From the IMG/VR virus record IMGVR_UViG_2663762948_000006, positions 1 to 9,758 of that record: a DNA stretch of 9,758 bases; one strand, written 5' to 3'. Both the position numbers and the translations under genes were made by a program. This document shows positions 1 to 9,758 of this stretch, one piece after another. The stretch comes from a virus (taxonomy: Duplodnaviria; Heunggongvirae; Uroviricota; Caudoviricetes). The notes under the pieces were generated by a model. It worked only from the letters and a program-made list of their open reading frames with translations. It was not told where the DNA came from and made no database searches. Numbering within the stretch: the stretch's first letter is position 1; the number at the start of each line of letters is the position of its first letter.

Positions 1-219
1 TTACATCCACATAATTTGCTGCCCTGATGGCAACGGGTGCGGCCTTACGGCGTGGACTTCTCCCGGCTTCACGATGTATCGCTGTACCGACTCATAAGTG
101 ATGAACGTGGCGCTGCAATTCACGTTCTGGCACTGATGATAACGCTCTTTTGTCGTGTCAGTGATATAGCGGCTTGTACGCGCATGTGCGGCATGCTGGC
201 ATAAAGGACAATGAAACAT
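1..219 (-). CDS. ogr: Ogr late-gene transcriptional activator (zinc-finger, P2 Ogr / P4 Delta family), 72 aa
   Basis: Translation from ATG at 217-219 gives MFHCPLCQHAAHARTSRYITDTTKERYHQCQNVNC..., with the CxxC...CxxxxC zinc-finger spacing and the 72-aa length of P2 Ogr. The 93-aa ORF in the track begins at an upstream TTG (280-282) and is probably an over-extension. SD-like GGAAGAGG lies about 8 nt upstream of the ATG on the minus strand. Confidence 0.9.
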   Translation of the reverse strand: MFHCPLCQHAAHARTSRYITDTTKERYHQCQNVNCSATFITYESVQRYIVKPGEVHAVRPHPLPSGQQIMWM

Positions 220-253
220 CGCGAGCACCTCTTCCGGTTTTGTTGATGGTGCC

Positions 254-282
254 ATTTTAGTTAATTTATCCTTACAAAACAA
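254..282 (-). promoter_or_regulatory. Putative sigma70 promoter for ogr (-35 TTGTTT, 17-bp spacer, -10 TAAAAT, read on minus strand)
   Basis: By eye: reverse complement of 277-282 is TTGTTT and of 254-259 is TAAAAT, 17 bp apart, about 35 nt upstream of the ogr ATG. No experimental support. Confidence 0.3.
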
Positions 283-300
283 ACAGATAAAACAAAAACA

Positions 301-1464
301 TCACTCATCATCTTCTGTTTCGTACTCCACATCAGAAAGCCTGACCTCAAGCTCTAAGGACGTCGTGAAGCCGCTATTATTCAGAAAATGTGTCACCTTA
401 GTGATTGTCCAGTCCTGCTCGTCTATGACGCGCTTAAAGCCAGACACTTTGACCGGTGTTTCCGTGTAAATATCTGCCCGACCGGTAGCCAGGCTGATGG
501 AGAACTCCGCAACGCCCCGTTGCAGTTTATCCCACTTCGCCTGAGCGGCGCGCATGGCCTGCGCTTTCGTGGCATATACCGTGGTCAGGGCAAAAACGTT
601 GTCAGCCTCACCGGCCATGTATTCACCTTCACGCGCTTCCGGTACTTTAGGCGCTTTCTTCTGCCTGACCGGTTTCGCTTTCGGGTGCTCCAGTGCGCGC
701 AGGTGTTTCTCTTTCTTTTTGCGTTTCAGTTTTACCTTCTGCTTTTGCGGCTTCGGGTCTTTAGTGTGTAGCCATTTTGCCGTTACACCGGTGTAGGCTC
801 CACGGTCAGCAATCGCAAAATGATGGCGGTCGCCGTCGCTGCGGGTTATGGTGACCTGCGGGATTTTTTTACCGCTGGCCGTCACTCCCTGCCCCGCTTT
901 GAGAAACAACAGTTTTCCCATTTTTACCGACACCTCACCGCCGTTGCGTTCTGCAAGACGGGTCAGGAATTTCGCATCAGACTCCTGCGACTGGTCGATG
1001 TGTGGAATTTTTATTCCGGCCAGTGACGGAGCGACACTGGCTTCCAGCCTGTTACGGGTGGCTATCGCCTTAACAATCGCACCGAGCGTGGTGTCATGCC
1101 AGGAGCCTTCCCGGCGGGAATTGAGCGTCCCGCGAAAATCTGCACTCCGGGCGCGGATGGTGACTACATCCGGTGCGCCCCGGTGTTCAACCTCATCAAC
1201 GGTAAATTTCCCTTTGCATACCAGGGCAAAACCTTTCCAGCCGATATACACCGTCAGGACAGCGCCACGAACCGGCAGCCCGACCTGCCCGTCGGCATCG
1301 TTCAGTTCAATATCAAGCTGGTCAGCCTCAAAGCCCCGGTTATCCGTCAGGGTCATGCTCATCAGACGGTCGCTGATATTGCCGGTAATATCCCTGCTGT
1401 CGAGCATCAGCATGTAATCCGGCGTCAGCGTACTGCCTGCATCAAATGTCAGCGCATCCAGCAT
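301..1464 (-). CDS. D: P2-type tail protein gpD (late control gene D), 387 aa
   Basis: 387-aa ORF, the length of P2 gpD, lying directly upstream of ogr as in P2 (T-U-D-ogr). The start ATG (1462-1464) overlaps the stop of the upstream gene as TAATG on the minus strand. Contains a Lys-rich basic segment. Confidence 0.88.
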   Translation of the reverse strand: MLDALTFDAGSTLTPDYMLMLDSRDITGNISDRLMSMTLTDNRGFEADQLDIELNDADGQVGLPVRGAVLTVYIGWKGFALVCKGKFTVDEVEHRGAPDVVTIRARSADFRGTLNSRREGSWHDTTLGAIVKAIATRNRLEASVAPSLAGIKIPHIDQSQESDAKFLTRLAERNGGEVSVKMGKLLFLKAGQGVTASGKKIPQVTITRSDGDRHHFAIADRGAYTGVTAKWLHTKDPKPQKQKVKLKRKKKEKHLRALEHPKAKPVRQKKAPKVPEAREGEYMAGEADNVFALTTVYATKAQAMRAAQAKWDKLQRGVAEFSISLATGRADIYTETPVKVSGFKRVIDEQDWTITKVTHFLNNSGFTTSLELEVRLSDVEYETEDDE

Positions 1465-1943
1465 TATCCCGCCCCCGTCATACCTGTGAATCTGGTCGCC
1501 ATACTGCCGGCCTTACCGATGAGCGATTCCGCCTGTTTACCGATATCGCCATAAAGCGCGGCCAGTGATTCATCAACGCGGGTGAGTGACAGCGTAAAAT
1601 CAATTTTCCGGGGTGTGCCGTCTGCAAAGAAAATACTCCCTGTTTCACTCACCCTGCTGATGACATACATGCCGTAAATCATGCCGGTGCCATCCAGCAA
1701 CGGCCACGCCCGCCCCTCCTCTGCCATCAGCCTGAGCGTGGTCATCGTCAGCTTGCCGCCGGTCAGTTCGGGATAAAGCACACCGGCCAGCGTGATGTTT
1801 TCCTCACCCACACCGAGAAACTGAAAGGCATCCCGTTTACCGATACGGGAATTTGACGGCCAGCGATAATCTGATTCACGCTGCATGGTCTGGTGTGGCA
1901 GCGTCTGGCGCATAAAAACAAACATACCTAACGCGAGCATCAT
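1464..1943 (-). CDS. U: P2-type tail protein gpU, 159 aa
   Basis: 159-aa ORF, the length of P2 gpU, between the T remnant and D on the same strand; its stop overlaps the D start. Confidence 0.85.
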   Translation of the reverse strand: MMLALGMFVFMRQTLPHQTMQRESDYRWPSNSRIGKRDAFQFLGVGEENITLAGVLYPELTGGKLTMTTLRLMAEEGRAWPLLDGTGMIYGMYVISRVSETGSIFFADGTPRKIDFTLSLTRVDESLAALYGDIGKQAESLIGKAGSMATRFTGMTGAG

Positions 1944-1957
1944 TTTTCGTCACCTCC

Positions 1958-2743
1958 TTAACCGTCATGCATCATGCTGGCACGGGCGCGCACACGTTTA
2001 TCCCGCTCGTATTTTTCGAGCGCATCCTGTAACTGGCGGTCAAGCTGTGTCCCCGGCGCAGTCCCCCCCGTCAGGCTGATGTGATATTCGTTTTTACTCT
2101 GGTCTACATAAGAGCGGCCAGCCGGTGCCGTGACCGGCTGATAAGCCTGATAGCCTGCATAAGAGCTGGTCGCCGGAATATAGTCACCGGTACCATACGT
2201 GGCGGTATGAGTTCTGGCGGCGGTCTGGTCAAGTGTGTCTGACTCTTTGTTGATAACACCGAGTTTTTCCAGTACCCAGTCAATACCACTGCGCAGTTTG
2301 TTGAACGCATTAAGCGGCAGCATCAACGCGTCAGCCAGTGCCTGCCCGAACATGACGCCCGTGTCACGGCAACGGTTCAGGGTGTCCTGGGTGGCTTTGA
2401 CCGGGGCAATCAGGTTTTTAAACCACTGCCACGCGGCCTGTAACTTTTCGCCCAGCCAGTCAAAAACCGGTTTAAGTGGCGTGAACAGTTCCCCCACCGG
2501 CGCAAATGCCGCTTTCAGCCCTTCAACCACACCACCAAAGAATGCGCTGACAGGCTCCCAGTATTTACGGATAAGCAACGCACCGGCGACAATGGCAGCC
2601 ACCACGGCCACAACCGGCCAGCTAATCGCCCCGATGGCCGTCATAACGGCACTGCCAACCGTCGTGAAGATTGCCCCCATTGCGCCTGCTGCCGCGATGA
2701 TGGCATTGATGCCGGTGATACCCATTCTGGTCGGGTGAACTGT
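1958..2743 (-). pseudogene. T: Tape-measure protein gpT, 3'-terminal remnant (about 255-261 codons of roughly 815); 5' part deleted
   Basis: The ORF ends 14 nt upstream of U as in P2 (T then U). The translation has a long Ala/Gly/Ile-rich hydrophobic segment and a C-terminal region typical of tape-measure proteins. The frame is closed by an in-frame stop at 2744-2746, so only the C-terminal third is present. First ATG is at 2723-2725. Confidence 0.8.
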
Positions 2744-3615
2744 TCAACCGGGGACGCGCCAGCGCCGCCGAACGCGTGGAAATCGACGTCAGTCATAACG
2801 CCCTTGCCGGAGGTCTTCTCTGTGCGGACGGCCAGTGGCGGCAGATTGTCACCATTGAGGACGCACTGAAAGGCGGCTGCACGCTGTTCGACATTGAGCA
2901 GCTCAAACGCGAAAACAGCGCCGACGATTTTAAAAACCTGTTCATGTGTGAATTTGTTGACGACAAGGCGTCGGTATTCCCGTTCGAGGAGCTGCAACGC
3001 TGCATGGTCGACACGCTGGAAGAATGGGAAGACTATGCGCCGTTTGCCGCCAATCCGTTCGGCTCCCGCCCGGTATGGATTGGTTACGACCCGTCACACC
3101 GTGGCGACAGCGCCGGATGCGTGGTGCTGGCACCGCCGGTGGTGGCCGGTGGCAAATTCAGAATACTTGAGCGTCACCAGTGGAAAGGCATGGACTTTGC
3201 CACCCAGGCGGAATCCATCCGCAAACTCACCAAAAAATATAACGTCGAATACATCGGTATTGATGCCACCGGCCTCGGTGTCGGCGTGTTCCAGCTCGTG
3301 CGCTCGTTCTATCCCGCCGCGCGCGACATCCGCTACACACCGGAAATGAAAACCGCAATGGTGCTCAAGGCAAAAGACGTTATCCGCCGTGGCTGTCTGG
3401 AATATGACGTCAGCGCCACCGACATCACCAGCTCGTTTATGGCTATCCGCAAGACCATGACCAGCAGCGGACGCAGCGCCACCTATGAGGCCAGCCGCAG
3501 CGAGGAAGCCAGCCACGCCGACCTCGCCTGGGCGACCATGCACGCTCTGTTAAATGAGCCACTCACCGCCGGTATCAGCACCCCGCTGACATCCACCATT
3601 CTGGAGTTTTACTGA
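2719..3615 (+). pseudogene. P: Terminase large subunit gpP, 3'-terminal remnant (nuclease-domain half); 5' half deleted
   Basis: The frame is open only from 2719 (in-frame stop at 2716-2718) and its first start codon is GTG at 2776. The translation carries terminase nuclease-domain-like motifs (WIGYDPSHRGDSAG, EYIGIDATGLGVG). Its stop overlaps the Q start (TGATG at 3613-3617), matching the P-Q order of P2. P2 gpP is about 590 aa; only about 280-300 codons remain. Confidence 0.8.
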
Positions 3616-4649
3616 TGAGCAAGAAAAAAGGGAAAACACCGCAACCTGCGGCAAAAAAAATGACCGCCAGCGCCCCGAAAATGGAGGCATTCACCTTTGG
3701 CGAACCGGTGCCGGTACTCGACCGCCGTGACATTCTGGATTACGTCGAATGCATCAGTAACGGCAGATGGTATGAGCCACCGGTCAGCTTTACCGGTCTG
3801 GCAAAAAGCCTGCGTGCTGCCGTGCATCACAGCTCCCCGATTTACGTCAAACGTAATATTCTGGCTTCAACGTTTATCCCGCATCCGTGGCTTTCCCAGC
3901 AGGATTTCAGCCGCTTTGTGCTGGATTTTCTGGTGTTCGGTAATGCGTTTCTGGAAAAGCGTTACAGCACCACCGGTAAGGTCATCAGACTGGAAACCTC
4001 ACCGGCAAAATATACCCGCCGTGGCGTGGAGGAGGATGTTTACTGGTGGGTGCCGTCCTTCAACGAGCCGACAGCCTTCGCGCCCGGCTCCGTGTTTCAC
4101 CTGCTGGAGCCGGATATTAATCAGGAGCTGTACGGCCTGCCGGAATATCTCAGCGCCCTTAACTCTGCCTGGCTGAATGAGTCGGCCACGCTGTTCCGCC
4201 GCAAGTATTACGAAAACGGCGCTCATGCCGGATATATCATGTACGTCACCGATGCCGTGCAGGATCGCAACGATATCGAAATGCTTCGCGAAAACATGGT
4301 CAAGTCGAAAGGCCGCAACAACTTTAAAAATCTGTTTCTCTATGCCCCACAGGGGAAAGCCGACGGTATTAAAATTATCCCCCTCAGTGAAGTGGCAACG
4401 AAGGACGATTTTTTTAATATCAAAAAAGCCAGCGCCGCTGACCTGCTGGACGCACACCGCATCCCCTTTCAGTTGATGGGCGGCAAGCCGGAGAACGTCG
4501 GATCGCTGGGTGATATTGAAAAAGTGGCAAAGGTCTTTGTCCGCAATGAGCTTATCCCGCTACAGGACAGAATTCGGGAAATAAACGGCTGGCTCGGCCA
4601 GGAGGTCATCCGCTTTAAAAACTATTCACTGGAGACTGACAACGGCTGA
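3615..4649 (+). CDS. Q: Portal (capsid vertex) protein gpQ, 344 aa
   Basis: 344-aa ORF, the length of P2 gpQ, immediately next to cos as in P2. GGAG lies 8 nt upstream of the ATG. Translationally coupled to the P remnant. Confidence 0.9.
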   Translation: MSKKKGKTPQPAAKKMTASAPKMEAFTFGEPVPVLDRRDILDYVECISNGRWYEPPVSFTGLAKSLRAAVHHSSPIYVKRNILASTFIPHPWLSQQDFSRFVLDFLVFGNAFLEKRYSTTGKVIRLETSPAKYTRRGVEEDVYWWVPSFNEPTAFAPGSVFHLLEPDINQELYGLPEYLSALNSAWLNESATLFRRKYYENGAHAGYIMYVTDAVQDRNDIEMLRENMVKSKGRNNFKNLFLYAPQGKADGIKIIPLSEVATKDDFFNIKKASAADLLDAHRIPFQLMGGKPENVGSLGDIEKVAKVFVRNELIPLQDRIREINGWLGQEVIRFKNYSLETDNG

Positions 4650-4654
4650 ACATC

Positions 4655-4676
4655 GCCGCCTGCGGGCGGCTTTTTT
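4655..4676 (+). terminator. Rho-independent terminator downstream of Q
   Basis: GCCGCC (4655-4660), loop TGCG, GGCGGC (4665-4670), followed by TTTTTT (4671-4676), starting 6 nt after the Q stop codon. Confidence 0.55.
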
Positions 4677-4818
4677 ACACCCCGCCATCACGCCCTCACA
4701 CGCTCATCACCGCACAAAAAATCCCGCAGACACACCAACGCCTCAACGGGCAGACTAAGCGCCGTCACGACGCGCTCAGACGCTGAAAAAATAAAATCAG
4801 CACCACCGCCAGCGCGCA

Positions 4819-4837
4819 GTGCTTTCCCCGCCTCGCC
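4819..4837. other. P2/P4-type cos site (19-nt cohesive-end sequence)
   Basis: Plus strand 4819-4837 is gtgctttccccgcctcgcc, whose reverse complement GGCGAGGCGGGGAAAGCAC is the 19-nt P2 cohesive end as I recall it. The flanking sequence toward Q also matches my recollection of the P2 left end. Confidence 0.72.
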
Positions 4838-5000
4838 CGCCCGCTTCATGGAGCGCTTTTAATGCAGTTGCAATAACACATCAAAACATCGTCAATACAG
4901 GCGATTATAAACAATAAAAAACGATCGCTGCCGCATGCAAAATCATGCACTAAATGCATGTATTGAAGGGAAATTAGGAACGTGCTCGTTTGGGTCTAAA

Positions 5001-5897
5001 CTATGATTTCGACACAACTATTTTCCCCAAATCAAAACTAAATTCGACATCCCCATTTACGATATTTTCATTTGTCACATGCTCATCAAAAAGGTCACTA
5101 ACATCATACCCCGACTGAAACACTGGGCTCATGATAGCCACGTCGGTGAATGGCTCTTTTTCATGTGTTATATAATATTGACCATAAACATTTGCAGATT
5201 CATCTGCATCATTAAGACTAAGGACTGTTTTTGCTTTGACTTCAGGCATCAGAGAAAAATCAATATTATTCAACAAACACAGTAAGATGCCTGCTATTGC
5301 TCTCCTGTTATTATCAAGCGGCATCAAGTCCACCCCTGGAATCTCCTTCCGAAGCAATATTTTCAGCTCATTAAATAAAGAGTCGAACTTAATTGCGTCA
5401 GAACAATTGAGTAACGACAAAGCTTCATTAATCATTCGCCCTTCATTGGAACCAATTTCTGATGTTAACTTACAAACACCATCATTAACAATATACGATT
5501 TTTTGTTATTAAGCTTCTTCCTCGCTGTAATTACCTGCCCCCCCTTTAAGTTTAACTTCTCCTTTAAAAACTCATCACTGAACATTCTTAATTGCAGTCT
5601 GATTAATGTAGGTAAGTATTTCGGGTATTCATTTAACTCTGGTTTAACAGCATGCTTGTCGCGTCCAAATTTTAAACTTAATAACAAATGATTCCTCAGC
5701 ATGATATCCTTTATCTCGCCTTGATCTCTCCGATGATTATGGGCAACAAAACTCCCAATTTCAAAAATACACTTGGGCGCACTCGGCAACTCACGGGCCG
5801 TAACAAAAAGAACATCAATATCACTATCAGTGAAACTCCCATCCTTTAATCTTCTCAACACTCTCTCTATTCTTGAGATTGCTTTACTTTTATTCAT
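5001..5897 (-). CDS. Hypothetical protein, 298 aa; low-GC cargo gene in the P2 tin/old hotspot position; function unknown
   Basis: Long uninterrupted ORF with an ATG start (5895-5897) in a visibly AT-rich block that contrasts with the surrounding P2 backbone. Lys/Asn/Ile-rich composition. I see no Walker A, HNH, HExxH or other recognisable catalytic motif. It lies between cos and the replication gene, where P2 carries tin and old. Confidence 0.7.
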   Translation of the reverse strand: MNKSKAISRIERVLRRLKDGSFTDSDIDVLFVTARELPSAPKCIFEIGSFVAHNHRRDQGEIKDIMLRNHLLLSLKFGRDKHAVKPELNEYPKYLPTLIRLQLRMFSDEFLKEKLNLKGGQVITARKKLNNKKSYIVNDGVCKLTSEIGSNEGRMINEALSLLNCSDAIKFDSLFNELKILLRKEIPGVDLMPLDNNRRAIAGILLCLLNNIDFSLMPEVKAKTVLSLNDADESANVYGQYYITHEKEPFTDVAIMSPVFQSGYDVSDLFDEHVTNENIVNGDVEFSFDLGKIVVSKS

Positions 5898-6177
5898 GAC
5901 ATTCTTTCAACCTTAATCAATATTTAATTTAAACAAACCATTCTCATACGCCAACCATACCTGTGACACCTGACAAACCAAATAAAAACAAAGGTACAGC
6001 GGATATTGGTATGTACAGCTATATTACACATAAACTCATGTTAGTAACATAAGATCTTCTTGTGAATATTTGTAATTTATTAGTTCACCAACATTAATCT
6101 TTCCAACCGTTATAAATCCAATCATATGCTGATACTCAAATGACGGCCAACTACCACCTCGCGCTGTTCGTTGTTCC

Positions 6178-6220
6178 CTCCAGCAGCACTGGAAGCATGT
6201 TTCAGTACTGCTGGGGTTTT
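6178..6220. terminator. Stem-loop (about 12-14 bp stem, one mismatch) followed by a T-run on the plus strand; possible bidirectional terminator
   Basis: CCAGCAGCACTG (6180-6191) pairs with CAGTACTGCTGG (6203-6214) around an 11-nt loop, then GGTTTT (6215-6220). It sits immediately after the stop of orf67 (6224) on the minus strand, but the U-tract is on the plus-strand side. Confidence 0.3.
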
Positions 6221-6223
6221 CTA

Positions 6224-6427
6224 TCAACAACGTGGTAGCAGTGCAATTTTAGACTGTTCTATATCGTTAAACCGCACGTAATTATCCCGGACTATTTCGG
6301 CACACCCGACCAACTCGTCGGGCGTCAGATTTTCGTTGACCATAATCTGCTGTAGACGGTGAACAATAGCCATCAGCTTGATATTTTTAGTGTTATGTTG
6401 CGGTATCTCGCCTGGTATTCTGTGCAT
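6224..6427 (-). CDS. Hypothetical small protein, 67 aa (from ATG at 6425-6427)
   Basis: The ATG overlaps the TAA stop of the upstream DUF3850-like gene (TAATG on minus strand), suggesting translational coupling. No recognisable motif. The track ORF (6224..6439) starts at an upstream GTG. Confidence 0.35.
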   Translation of the reverse strand: MHRIPGEIPQHNTKNIKLMAIVHRLQQIMVNENLTPDELVGCAEIVRDNYVRFNDIEQSKIALLPRC

Positions 6428-6882
6428 TATCCAAGCCACCCGTTTTGCTTTGCACGCTCAATCTGTTCATCTGAATAGTTCCATGCTCCATCCGTGGCAA
6501 CCATTGCCCCGCCAGACATCCCCGTCTCTGGTTCATACATAACAGCAAGGCCGAGCTGATGCATAATTTCATGATTAATTCTGAATACCAGACCACGCTC
6601 ACTAAGTTCTTTCCAGTTCACAATCTCATATGCGCCTGTATTAAGCTGCTCAATACTTAGCAAGACATAATCTTCCAGCCAGTCTGACAGGTCAGTAACA
6701 TCTGTTATCCGGGCTTCAACCTTTCGCCCCGTATACACACCCTGCACCCATTCATGCAAAATCAACGTGTCCCCGCGCTCATAATTACGGTCATTTTTCC
6801 GAAACTCTGCGCGTTTCTTTCCTTCCAGCACAAGGTCGAAATATTTTGCGTGCAGCTTTACCTCGTGAATTTTTGCCATCAT
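6427..6882 (-). CDS. DUF3850/ASCH-like (PUA-fold) domain protein with a C-terminal HExxH motif, about 151 aa
   Basis: The N-terminal region (KIHEVKLHAKYFDLVLEGKKRAEFRKNDRNYERGDTLILHEW...YTGR) resembles the DUF3850/ASCH-like family as I recall it. The C-terminal part contains HEIMH (6559-6573), an HExxH zinc-binding-like motif. The likely start is the ATGATG at 6877-6882, which overlaps the TGA stop of A (6879-6881); the track ORF extends 11 codons further upstream into A. Confidence 0.65.
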   Translation of the reverse strand: MMAKIHEVKLHAKYFDLVLEGKKRAEFRKNDRNYERGDTLILHEWVQGVYTGRKVEARITDVTDLSDWLEDYVLLSIEQLNTGAYEIVNWKELSERGLVFRINHEIMHQLGLAVMYEPETGMSGGAMVATDGAWNYSDEQIERAKQNGWLG

Positions 6883-8729
6883 GTCCACTCCATTACTGTT
6901 GAGAATCCCGGCCACTCATCAGCGACCGGATACGTGAATTTTTTCCCGTCATAATTTACAGTCGCGCCACGCGCCAGCGCCTCAAGCTCCCATCGCTGCG
7001 GCCTGATACCGTTCTGAGCAAGGTCAACGCGGATACGGGTGATTTGCATTCGTTCCGACCGGGTCAGTCTGGCAGATGGTGCAATTTCATGCGGTTTTAA
7101 CGGGCTTCCGTTTCTTTGCTGACGGTTTGGCGTTCTCATGTCGTATTTTAATGCGCCCCTGAGCGCCCTCACGACCTCCGGTTCATTCCATTCAATAACA
7201 CCGTCATCAACCAGATTAAGCACTGCTGCGGCGTGCTCAGAAGGTGTGGGAGCCGGTAACGAAGTATCACCACCGGTGAGCTTTCCACAGTTATTGACAG
7301 GACTCCGAGGCGCGGCGATGCCGCTTTTTAAAGTCAAAGGCTCAACGACCGGAACTTTCGGCACAATGCGCCAGTCCGTCGTTCTGGTGATATGAATATG
7401 ACGCGCGCCGAGATGCGGCGCGTAAATGCCGACCACTCTCTCGACTTCTTCCTCGTACTCGTTAACGTCATCCGACGGGCTACGGGCAACCCTGACAGTC
7501 TGACAATCGCGCGGGACATTTGCCCCACCCTGCGCGCTGATATACAACGCAAAATCACCACTGTCTGCGGCAGCGCGAGCAGCCTCGACGCGTTCGTCAA
7601 ACTCATCAGCAATACTGACGCCGCGAGGCAATTTGCGTAGTTCACGGTAAGCCCCCATTGTCGGCAGTCCAACCGTTTTAAATTGCGGGATGCGCCACGT
7701 TGACGCCCATGCGGTAACAGCCGCGGCAGTATCTTTAAGCGGCTTACCGGTATCGTTATCGAGCTGACCATCCAGTGCATAGCCGTCGATATTTTTTGAA
7801 ATGTATTTCGCGATATATCCCGCAGCACCGCCCCGGTTAAGGTGCTTTGCCTGAAAACGGTTTCGCGCGGCTCCTCTTTCGTCACCATCCTCTTTGAGCG
7901 CATAGCGACGCATGATTTCGATAATCTGGTTACGCTGGCGTGGATTACAAAAAAGCATCATATGCCAGTGCGGCGTTCCGTCGTGGTGTGGCTCGACGAC
8001 ACGCAAACCGTAGACCTGTAAATCATTATCCTTGAATGCCGTGCGCATCAGGCTCCAGATGCGGCAGAGATAACGCTGCGCATCCTTTGGATTAAATGCC
8101 TCATCGTTCCAGCCGTGATTAAGCTGAACGGTTTTACTTTCGCCTTTTCTGACCTGACGAGTCGGGTGATACTTTGACGGCGCGGTCAGCGTGATAAACA
8201 TCCCCACATCACCCTCTGCGGCGGCGTAACGCTCAATACCGGCAATGGTGTTCATCAGCTCCATCCGGCGAATTTCAGGATTAGAAATACTGCCCATCAC
8301 CTTACTGATAAGGTCGATGCGCTCGCCGGTTTCCCTGTTTTCAAGGTCACACGATTTAAGAAATTCCAGATTTGCCTGGCGGCGCGCACGCACATCACGA
8401 ATGGCGTGTTTACTGGCATACATCATGAAAAGCTGCGATGAGATACGGGCGGCAAACTTTTTCAGCTCCTTGTCATTCATTCCCGGCAGGCGCGCATAGT
8501 GGTCACGCTCTGCCAGAAACAGCAACGACGCGTCGGTGTTCATTTCATGGCGCTGATTCACACGCTCAATGCGCGGCCATAAACGACGCTGAAAAGTGGA
8601 TGTGAGAAAATAAAACCCGTGCACCGGGCTTTTATTACGCCGGATGTAGTCATAGCGTGAAGTAAACAGCGAGCGCAAAAAGTAAGGCAGGCGATTTATC
8701 GTGGATAACTCTATATAAAAATTACATTT
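6879..8729 (-). pseudogene. A: Rolling-circle replication initiator gpA, 5'-truncated (about 600-616 C-terminal codons of 761 retained)
   Basis: The translation contains the paired-tyrosine motif GYIAKYISK (Y288 and Y292 of the track ORF). P2 gpA is 761 aa with active-site tyrosines that I recall as Y450 and Y454; the offset of 162 plus 599 equals 761, so the C-terminus aligns exactly. The frame is closed by a stop at 8730-8732, the first start in frame is TTG (8676-8678) with no SD, and no B, cox or C genes lie upstream. Confidence 0.8.
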
Positions 8730-8755
8730 TCACCATTTGCCACCAAGATGGTGAA
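8729..8755. promoter_or_regulatory. Nested inverted repeat immediately upstream of int (possible operator or protein-binding site)
   Basis: TTCACCA (8729-8735) and TGGTGAA (8749-8755) are 7-bp inverted arms 13 bp apart; nested inside is CACCA-AGA-TGGTG (8741-8753). It lies 23 nt upstream of the int ATG within the A'/int junction region. Function is inferred only. Confidence 0.25.
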
Positions 8756-8777
8756 TACAGCGCCGGAGGGCTTTCTT

Positions 8778-9758
8778 ATGGCAATTAAGAAGCTCGATGA
8801 TGGTCGCTATGAAGTGGACATTAGACCTCGCGGTCGCGACGGAAAACGCATCCGCAGGAAATTTGAAAGAAAAGCTGAAGCACTAGCATTTGAGCGATAC
8901 ACAATCGCCAATGCCAGTCAGAAAGAATGGGGAGGCCAGCGAGCAGACCGCCGAACTTTGACAGAATTGCTCGACATCTGGTGGAAATACCACGGGCAAA
9001 ACCACGAGCATGGGACAAAAGAGTTTAATCATCTGCTCAAAACCATCAGCGGCATAGGTGATATACCAGTGAGTCGGATGAACAAAAGGGCTTTGATGGA
9101 TTATCGCTCCATGCGACTACGTGATGGCATCAGTGCTGCAACGATAAACCGCGACATGTACCGATTATCCGGCATGTTCACAAAATTAATTCAATTGGAT
9201 GAATTTTCCGGGCAACACCCAATTCACGGACTGCCGCCACTGACGGAGGCTAACCCTGAAATGACGTTCCTGGAAAAAGCAGAAATCGAAAAACTGCTAA
9301 ATGTTTTGACTGGTGATGACTTACTTGTCGCGCTTTTATGTCTGAGCACTGGAGGAAGGTGGACGGAAGTTGCCACGCTAAAACCAGCACAGATTACAAG
9401 TTGCAGGGTTACCTTCCTGAAAACCAAAAACGGTAAAAAGCGAACAGTGCCGATTTCTGAGGAACTGGAGAAAAAAGTTAAAGAGGAGGCCAGCGCCAAA
9501 TTGTTCAAGGTAGATTATGAGAAGTTTTGCGGGATTTTACGCAGAGTGAAACCTGATATACCTCCCAATCAGGCAACCCACATTCTGCGGCATACATTCG
9601 CAAGCCATTTCATGATGAATGGGGGCAACATAATTGCACTGCAACAGATTCTGGGGCATGCGAGCATTCAGCAGACAATGACCTATGCGCACCTTGCGCC
9701 TGACTACCTGCAGAACGCCGTCGCTCTGAATCCACTAAAAGGCGGAGTGACGTTATAA
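8778..9758 (+). CDS. int: Tyrosine recombinase, P2-type integrase (326 aa from ATG 8778; alternative start ATG 8748 gives 336 aa)
   Basis: N-terminus MAIKKLDDGRYEVDIRP... matches my recollection of P2-family Int. The C-terminal catalytic region carries the tyrosine-recombinase signature (HILRHTFASHFMMNGG...LGHASIQQTMTYAHL). GGAGGG lies 8 nt upstream of ATG 8778; the upstream ATG at 8748 has no SD. Confidence 0.9.
   Translation: MAIKKLDDGRYEVDIRPRGRDGKRIRRKFERKAEALAFERYTIANASQKEWGGQRADRRTLTELLDIWWKYHGQNHEHGTKEFNHLLKTISGIGDIPVSRMNKRALMDYRSMRLRDGISAATINRDMYRLSGMFTKLIQLDEFSGQHPIHGLPPLTEANPEMTFLEKAEIEKLLNVLTGDDLLVALLCLSTGGRWTEVATLKPAQITSCRVTFLKTKNGKKRTVPISEELEKKVKEEASAKLFKVDYEKFCGILRRVKPDIPPNQATHILRHTFASHFMMNGGNIIALQQILGHASIQQTMTYAHLAPDYLQNAVALNPLKGGVTL

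Follow-up and report, generated by a model that had tools for sequence, protein, structure and literature searches.

A disrupted P2-type gene A, probably an inert pseudogene, retains its catalytic motifs and origin in a prophage remnant

Replication of phage P2 provides the closest described system for the locus reported here. Residues Y450 and Y454 have been named as the P2 A protein's active site (PMC3986222, citing Odegrip and Haggard-Ljungquist 2001), and the P2 origin of replication (ori) is established as intragenic (PMC3986222, citing Liu and Haggard-Ljungquist 1994). Gene B is needed in lagging-strand synthesis (PMC3986222). The Phage_GPA family and its two-tyrosine mechanism have been covered previously, as have the family assignment and the two tyrosines of phiX174 protein A (PMC5714925).

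We analysed a stretch of viral DNA of 9,758 nucleotides (positions 1 to 9,758 of IMG/VR record IMGVR_UViG_2663762948_000006), hereafter the window, the minus strand of which carries a remnant of gene A that we call A'. In common with P2 gpA and its ori, A' shows 97-98% nucleotide identity to P2 over the retained parts, the same FITLT, H399-W-H401 and Y450/Y454 residues, and an identical ori nick-site sequence in the same place (codon 620). Unlike P2 gene A, it is devoid of codons 1-53 and 151-249, of the Pe promoter, of the start codon and of the partner gene B. P2 A, its two active-site tyrosines and the intragenic ori are already known, and the present locus is a damaged copy of them. We consider A' to be, with high probability, an inert pseudogene of a P2-type rolling-circle initiator, located in a decaying remnant of a P2-like prophage.

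Two further systems invite comparison. The A* protein of phiX174 is an in-frame, N-terminally shortened gene A protein made from a dedicated internal translation start. At a conceptual level A' is similar, as a Phage_GPA-type sequence that has lost N-terminal residues and kept the centre formed by the HUH motif and Y-x-x-x-Y; unlike A*, it has also lost an internal conserved block and has no start with a ribosome-binding site. The remnant as a whole resembles P4-like satellites and hitchers in its size of ~10 kb, its P2-type cos, its integrase and its chromosomal location (PMC9122126). It differs from P4-like satellites in that genes for its own replication or for manipulating a helper are missing, and in that its ori needs a cis-acting initiator that is no longer encoded; of their combination of own replication, helper genes and cos, it has cos.

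A P2-like prophage reduced by three deletions

The left part of the window holds, on the minus strand, ogr (1-282), D (301-1464), U (1464-1943) and the 3' end of the tape-measure gene T (T', to ~2723), which abuts the 3' half of the terminase gene P (P', plus strand, from 2719). The portal gene Q follows (3615-4649, plus strand), and the P2 cos 19-mer GGCGAGGCGGGGAAAGCAC is intact at 4819-4837 (minus strand), as identified from the sequence itself, from blastn to the right end of P2 and from the cosL and cosR features of the P2 record. A low-GC cargo segment and a DUF3850/ASCH gene (6427-6882, minus strand) come next. Beyond the latter lie A' (6879-8708, minus strand; blastn to P2, translation), a leftover of the intergenic DNA that separates repressor and integrase genes, reaching from the A' junction to where the integrase begins (8709-8777; blastn to prophages L002 and L013), and an intact P2-type integrase of 326 aa (8778-9758, plus strand; Pfam Int_N and Phage_integrase) of the type that adjoins cpxP. 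Besides A' and the integrase, the open reading frames are ogr, D, U, T', P' and Q, all P2 structural or regulatory genes, together with the DUF3850 gene and the cargo. A 298-aa cargo ORF found no match in PADLOC or Pfam, and an Rfam scan of the window returned no match.

The 298-aa cargo protein leads to full P2-like prophages with the order A - DUF3850 - 67-aa ORF - 298-aa ORF - Q. Some of these (L013 and L014) adjoin cpxP with the same 326-aa integrase type, the window integrase having 6 amino acid differences from that of L013. Window positions 2719-8420 are collinear with the full prophages carrying the 298-aa cargo, at about 98%. The window is therefore a prophage of the same kind that has undergone three deletions, designated D1, D2 and D3.

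The D1 junction, at 8702-8708 on the minus strand, was read out from blastn alignments to isolateD and to the full prophages L010-L014, together with the P2 map. D1 is a deletion of 2,607 bp that brought codon 54 of A up against the C-like repressor gene's stop codon, across a microhomology consisting of TTA, one mismatch and then CCA. According to the P2 gene map, C, Pe/Pc, cox, orf78, B, orf80-83 and A codons 1-53 were lost with it. D2 is an in-frame deletion of 297 bp (A codons 151-249) between two TATG tetramers; this 4-bp microhomology marks the junction at 8417-8420 (minus strand), as seen in overlapping blastn pieces, in parent and window placed side by side, and in the alignment. Across D2, the A' sequence runs from QLFMMY directly into ASKHAIRD. 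D3 extends from the 5' half of P through the 5' part of T. All three are microhomology-mediated deletions of the illegitimate-recombination type, and they have brought the prophage down to about 9.8 kb.

This anatomy revises the preliminary description of the locus, in which length arithmetic had led to a frame comprising the last ~600 codons of A and to a loss of the N-terminal ~150 residues. Blastn, translation and alignment reveal two deletions instead, one of codons 1-53 and an internal one of the 99 codons 151-249. The whole of 6879-8729 had also been assigned to A, which holds for 6879-8708; A-derived sequence stops there, and 8709-8729 is of repressor-integrase intergenic origin.

Retained catalytic motifs, origin and cos

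The stop-to-stop frame at 8729-6879 (minus strand) is P2 gene A sequence as far as 8708. In blastn against the P2 reference (AF063097, locus L001 in our set; gene A at 28034-30319, 761 aa), window 6659-8420 corresponds to P2 30539-28778 with 97.3% identity and window 8417-8708 to P2 28484-28193 with 98.6% identity, both without gaps. A megablast against phage records matched 6700-8708 to P2 and relatives at 96-98%, one of the features under this match being 'nick site at ori'. A' is composed of two segments, both on the minus strand. Segment 1 holds gpA codons 54-150 (8418-8708; translation LSTINRLPYF...QLFMMY), and segment 2 holds codons 250-761 and the stop (6879-8417; translation and alignment with eight intact alleles). 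Of the 761 codons, 609 are thus kept, in a frame that is open over 617 codons.

Segment 2 contains motif 1, the HUH motif, Y450/Y454, ori and the C-terminal domain. Rep motif 1, FITLT (F323-T327), lies at 8184-8198 and the HUH motif, H399-W-H401, at 7962-7970, both on the minus strand and both unchanged, as judged from the translation and the gap-free mapping onto P2. The same mapping places the tyrosine pair Y450-I-A-K-Y454 at 7803-7817 (minus strand). An intact YxxxY motif, GYIAKYISK, had been noted earlier, and the P2 alignment bears this out, with both Y450 (TAT, 7817-7815) and Y454 (TAC, 7805-7803) unmutated.

The alignment to P2 A, which had been proposed as a means of placing ori and the two tyrosines, also confirms that ori falls in the retained 3' part of A and outside the deletions. 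The P2 nick site (29892, A codon 620; a position taken from the feature in GenBank AF063097 and from secondary citations) maps to window position 7306, and 180 of the 181 bases flanking it are the same as in P2. The ori core of 35 nt, GCGGCATCGCCGCGCCTCGGAGTCCTGTCAATAAC, located through the P2 rep_origin feature and the mapping, lies at 7290-7324 (minus strand) and occurs a single time in the window. The 20-mer GCGCCTCGGAGTCCTGTCAA at 7294-7313 (minus strand) likewise has one occurrence in the window, where 0 would be expected by chance. By the identity of its nick site to the P2 ori within gene A, the window carries a P2-type ori. As single-stranded DNA, the ori region folds no more stably than shuffled sequence (z = -0.8), and so we make no structural claim for it.

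Besides its ori, a functional P2-type replicon requires a cis-acting A as well as B for the lagging strand (PMC3986222), and the window has a broken A and no B. Since the A' fragment is doubtful and gene B is gone, the element is therefore unable to replicate alone.

The retained ori and cos could instead be used in trans by a superinfecting or co-resident P2-like phage, whose protein would nick the chromosomal ori. Rolling-circle synthesis would then begin in situ towards cos and Q, or the ~10-kb remnant, once excised, would be replicated and packaged as a helper-dependent hitcher; ori might otherwise titrate A as a decoy. Each of the 15 A-bearing P2-like loci that were fetched has the same ori core, the cos 19-mer is intact and lies, on the minus strand, downstream of ori by 2.5 kb, and the integrase ORF is intact. 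Moreover, a remnant of ~9.8 kb is smaller than the ~12 kb capacity of the small P4-satellite capsid (PMC9122126), and plasmids carrying oop-ori-lambda inhibit phages with lambda-type replication (PMC3349717), although this lambda precedent depended on a multicopy plasmid. We nonetheless regard use in trans as very unlikely. D1 has taken away cox, whose product prophage excision requires according to the P2 record, and has deprived the integrase, despite its intact ORF, of the upstream repressor gene and promoter region. P2 mutants in A show poor complementation, and superinfecting P2 is not known to replicate a resident prophage. Liu et al. 1993, in addition, call gene A cis-acting in their title. 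Inspection of the window ORFs showed no genes of P4 type that would control capsid size or manipulate a helper, and the allele was not found elsewhere in the collections searched, which gives no sign of horizontal spread. A helper-dependent remnant, in which the protein of an incoming phage nicks ori and drives rolling-circle replication toward cos, so that the remnant or adjacent chromosome is packaged, or in which ori serves as a decoy, appears exceedingly improbable to us.

Absent expression signals and a depleted conserved core

We turn back to A' as an inert pseudogene, a reading that concerns both its expression and its product. The native Pe promoter and the native ATG of A were removed by D1, in agreement with the preliminary description, which had found the native promoter and translation start to be gone. 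A simple consensus scan of the minus strand between 6300 and 9000 detected no sigma-70-like promoter, and a promoter scan of 8709-8777 turned up nothing promoter-like on the two strands. We also considered whether A' might be fused to what lies upstream. Walking and translating the frame reveals an in-frame TGA at 8730-8732 (minus strand), and therefore no upstream fusion is possible.

Internal starts fare no better. Within the first ~115 codons of A' there are nine in-frame ATG, GTG or TTG codons, and a simple consensus test found a suitably spaced Shine-Dalgarno match before none of them (0/9), including the TTG at 8678 that begins the 599-aa A' ORF. With 0/9 starts, A' has no A*-like internal start with a ribosome-binding site, nor does it combine the promoter, ribosome-binding site and start of an expressible gene. 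In related genomes, cpxP lies on the far side of the integrase and shares its direction of transcription with A'. We conjecture that read-through from cpxP into A' is conceivable if the element sits there, a presumed placement. From these observations we infer that A' most probably has no dedicated promoter driving its transcription and is not translated.

The consequences of the two deletions for the protein were assessed by comparison with its family. Searching 1.84 billion representative proteins yielded 2,783 gpA relatives, and most of the distant ones align just to P2 residues ~205-630. Across 123 diverse aligned members, which have 28-57% identity to the reference sequence, residues G386, R388, E391, D395, H399, H401, Y450 and R507 are invariant, and W220, E233, V242, Y249, F323, T325, T327, K453 and Y454 are at least 90% conserved. 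We then scored the occupancy of individual segments in 122 relatives, counting a relative as positive when at least 70% of the segment was occupied. P2 residues 1-53 are present in 12 of the 122 and residues 151-204 in 64, as compared with 119 for residues 205-249 and 120-122 for residues 250-310, 311-470 and 471-600.

Judged by this occupancy, the 5' truncation (residues 1-53) falls in a variable part of gpA. D2, on the other hand, takes out 45 residues of the universal core, including the nearly invariant W220, E233, V242 and Y249. A' consequently keeps the catalytic motifs but not the complete core (~205-630). The Pfam profile Phage_GPA (PF05840) reflects the same loss: A' scores 299.6 bits against a gathering cutoff of 31.4, but it is matched only over profile positions 107-321 of 321, compared with 1-321 for P2 gpA, because D2 removes part of the core.

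Structure prediction gives a view of what D2 removes. The AlphaFold2 model calculated for a full-length allele with the 123 diverse representatives reached a pLDDT of 87.5 and a pTM of 0.78 (an earlier run with 39 close homologues gave a pLDDT of 48 and was set aside). Nearly every residue from 41 to 610 scores above 90, residues 611-640 are predicted to be disordered, and a small C-terminal domain follows. In this model of the intact protein, the D2 region forms about six confident helices, with a pLDDT of 96-98 for residues 205-249. Extrapolating from the intact protein, an A' product without the D2 helices may well misfold, and conservation and model together make a nicking-competent A' product seem unlikely. 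The nicking-competent fragment envisaged in the preliminary description is accordingly a weak prospect, given that D2 removes conserved core, that promoter and ribosome-binding site are missing and that gene B is deleted.

The alternative that A' is produced in small amounts, by read-through or from a non-canonical or internal start, and acts as a relaxed, truncated nickase like phiX174 A* could appeal to the open frame, to the intact motif 1, HUH motif and tyrosines, to a 5' truncation that on its own costs just the rarely present residues 1-53 (12/122 relatives) and to cpxP read-through if the element is at the presumed cpxP site, but it strikes us as highly improbable in view of the absence of any promoter-like site and of a Shine-Dalgarno match before any in-frame start checked, the loss of W220, E233, V242 and Y249 along with about six well-ordered helices, and the absence of the exact product from an index of 153 billion genes.

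Recent decay of a private or rare allele

Other reduced prophages provide a context for A' as a pseudogene. Remnants at the E. coli cpxP/fieF site are like the window in their integrase type and in the order ogr-D-U-T'/P'-Q-cos-cargo-A; unlike the window, those that have A keep it at full length or carry other deletions. In isolateD (NZ_CP135488), the end point of P' is the same as in the window and the early region is intact. In ECCWS199 (NZ_CP032237), just int, a C fragment and ogr are left, and in EC2 (NZ_CP041955) an IS21-like element lies between U and P'. Several differently decayed remnants are thus present at cpxP/fieF, and so decay is commonplace at this site. A further, different set of deletions is found in the ENA contig ERZ18534206 NODE_528.

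The particular junctions of the window have a much narrower occurrence. The D1 and D2 junctions are absent from 5,426 complete E. coli genomes, from GTDB species representatives and from metagenome contigs, and the D2 junction is absent from the viral contigs searched. The exact A' products (599 aa, or 554 aa from the first ATG) are likewise not in the 153-billion-gene index. The A' allele is private or rare, and the absence of its junctions elsewhere argues against a maintained, spreading allele.

Compared with eight intact 761-codon alleles, A' shows 23-63 differences over about 1,830 positions, and each retained A' residue is matched in some intact allele. Only three substitutions are private to A', at codons 57, 77 and 735, and all are synonymous, so the deletions are recent relative to decay by point mutation. 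Selection was also considered, and the inference was dropped because three private changes are too few; the substitutions are uninformative about selection on A', in either direction.

We note that the frame of A' remains open over its entire length, that its retained residues all occur in intact alleles and that D2 is in frame, observations that run counter to an inert A'. All of these features, like the synonymous nature of the three private substitutions, fit very recent decay, and loss of function is what we infer rather than what they show.

In the course of events that we propose for an inert A', D1 stripped the prophage of its repressor and its two early promoters, of cox, B and orf80-83, and of the first 53 codons of A, D2 stripped a further 99 A codons in frame, and D3 the 5' half of P, the 5' part of T and all that lay between them. 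The A' product, even if made, would be missing a portion of the enzyme body that is both conserved and structured. The catalytic motifs, ori and cos would persist passively in the remnant, surviving because their DNA has so far not been hit by any deletion.

In sum, the locus documents how three deletions mediated by microhomology, including an in-frame one within the replication gene, have worn down a P2-like prophage, and it illustrates that an intragenic origin can outlast the gene around it. If ori and cos were to respond to a helper phage, the remnant would be en route to a satellite-like or decoy element.

Origin DNA and the neighbourhood of the gene A remnant

Codons 611-640 of gpA span the replication origin (window 7246-7335), and the stretch of protein encoded by this DNA is disordered in the AlphaFold2 prediction, with pLDDT below 50 at residues 611-616 and 620-639. 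Even so, of 122 distant relatives 99 have residues 601-630 occupied, and most positions from 610 to 627 are invariant across 39 close homologues (alignment A2). What keeps this stretch conserved may be a constraint on the origin DNA rather than on the protein. Along the direction of A transcription, the P2 cohesive-end 19-mer GGCGAGGCGGGGAAAGCAC lies intact 2.5 kb downstream of ori (4819-4837, minus strand).

The gene after A differs from that of P2: the window carries a 151-aa DUF3850/ASCH plus DUF7415 protein (6427-6882, minus strand), whereas P2 has the 109-aa Orf91. The A stop codon and the start of the DUF3850 gene still overlap as ATGA at 6879-6882, and P2 homology ends within this gene, at 6659.

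At the other side of A, mechanical calling starts the integrase ORF at 8748; homology with the integrases of P2 and L013 (a full P2-like prophage with the same integrase type) begins only at the ATG at 8778 (MAIKKLDDGRY...). The 2,607-bp deletion running from the repressor gene C to A codon 53 took the repressor gene and, upstream of int, the promoter region, leaving 8709-8777, and the integrase is therefore probably silent too. ogr, D, U, Q and int are all kept as full-length ORFs, although the element is unable to form particles.

Cargo in the gpA-gpQ interval

The P2 region between gpA and gpQ has been described as a "defence hotspot" (PMC9122126), and it is this region that the window's cargo segment occupies (4873-6650, between cos and the DUF3850 gene), at a low GC content of about 36%. 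Its 298-aa ORF (5001-5897, minus strand) has no match in Pfam or PADLOC, and its sole match is PHROG 29586 (unknown function). In the gene index, 236 blocks list the identical protein; of the six places shown, five are full P2-like prophages. We regard this ORF as a candidate anti-phage gene.

Deletion history and the remnants at cpxP|fieF

The leftover 3' end of tape-measure gene T and 3' half of terminase gene P meet at 2719-2723, a junction whose counterpart positions in the E. coli isolateD remnant (L002) are 5717-5721 and 6103-6107. The P end point of this large deletion is exactly the same in both elements, while a further 381 bp of T beside the junction is missing from the window relative to isolateD, with a 5-bp overlap. 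Together, the common end point and the additional loss suggest nested deletions that started from one old junction. In strain EC2, which carries another remnant at cpxP|fieF, the corresponding position between U and the remaining P is occupied by the IS21-like ISEc12, a hint that deletion was IS-mediated in some lineages.

The E. coli cpxP|fieF site holds many P2-like remnants that decayed independently (L002, L003, L015, L017), ranging from a nearly complete early region down to only int, a C fragment and ogr. Cargo segments vary among remnants that have a deletion end point in common, which suggests that incoming phages later recombined with the remnants at this site.
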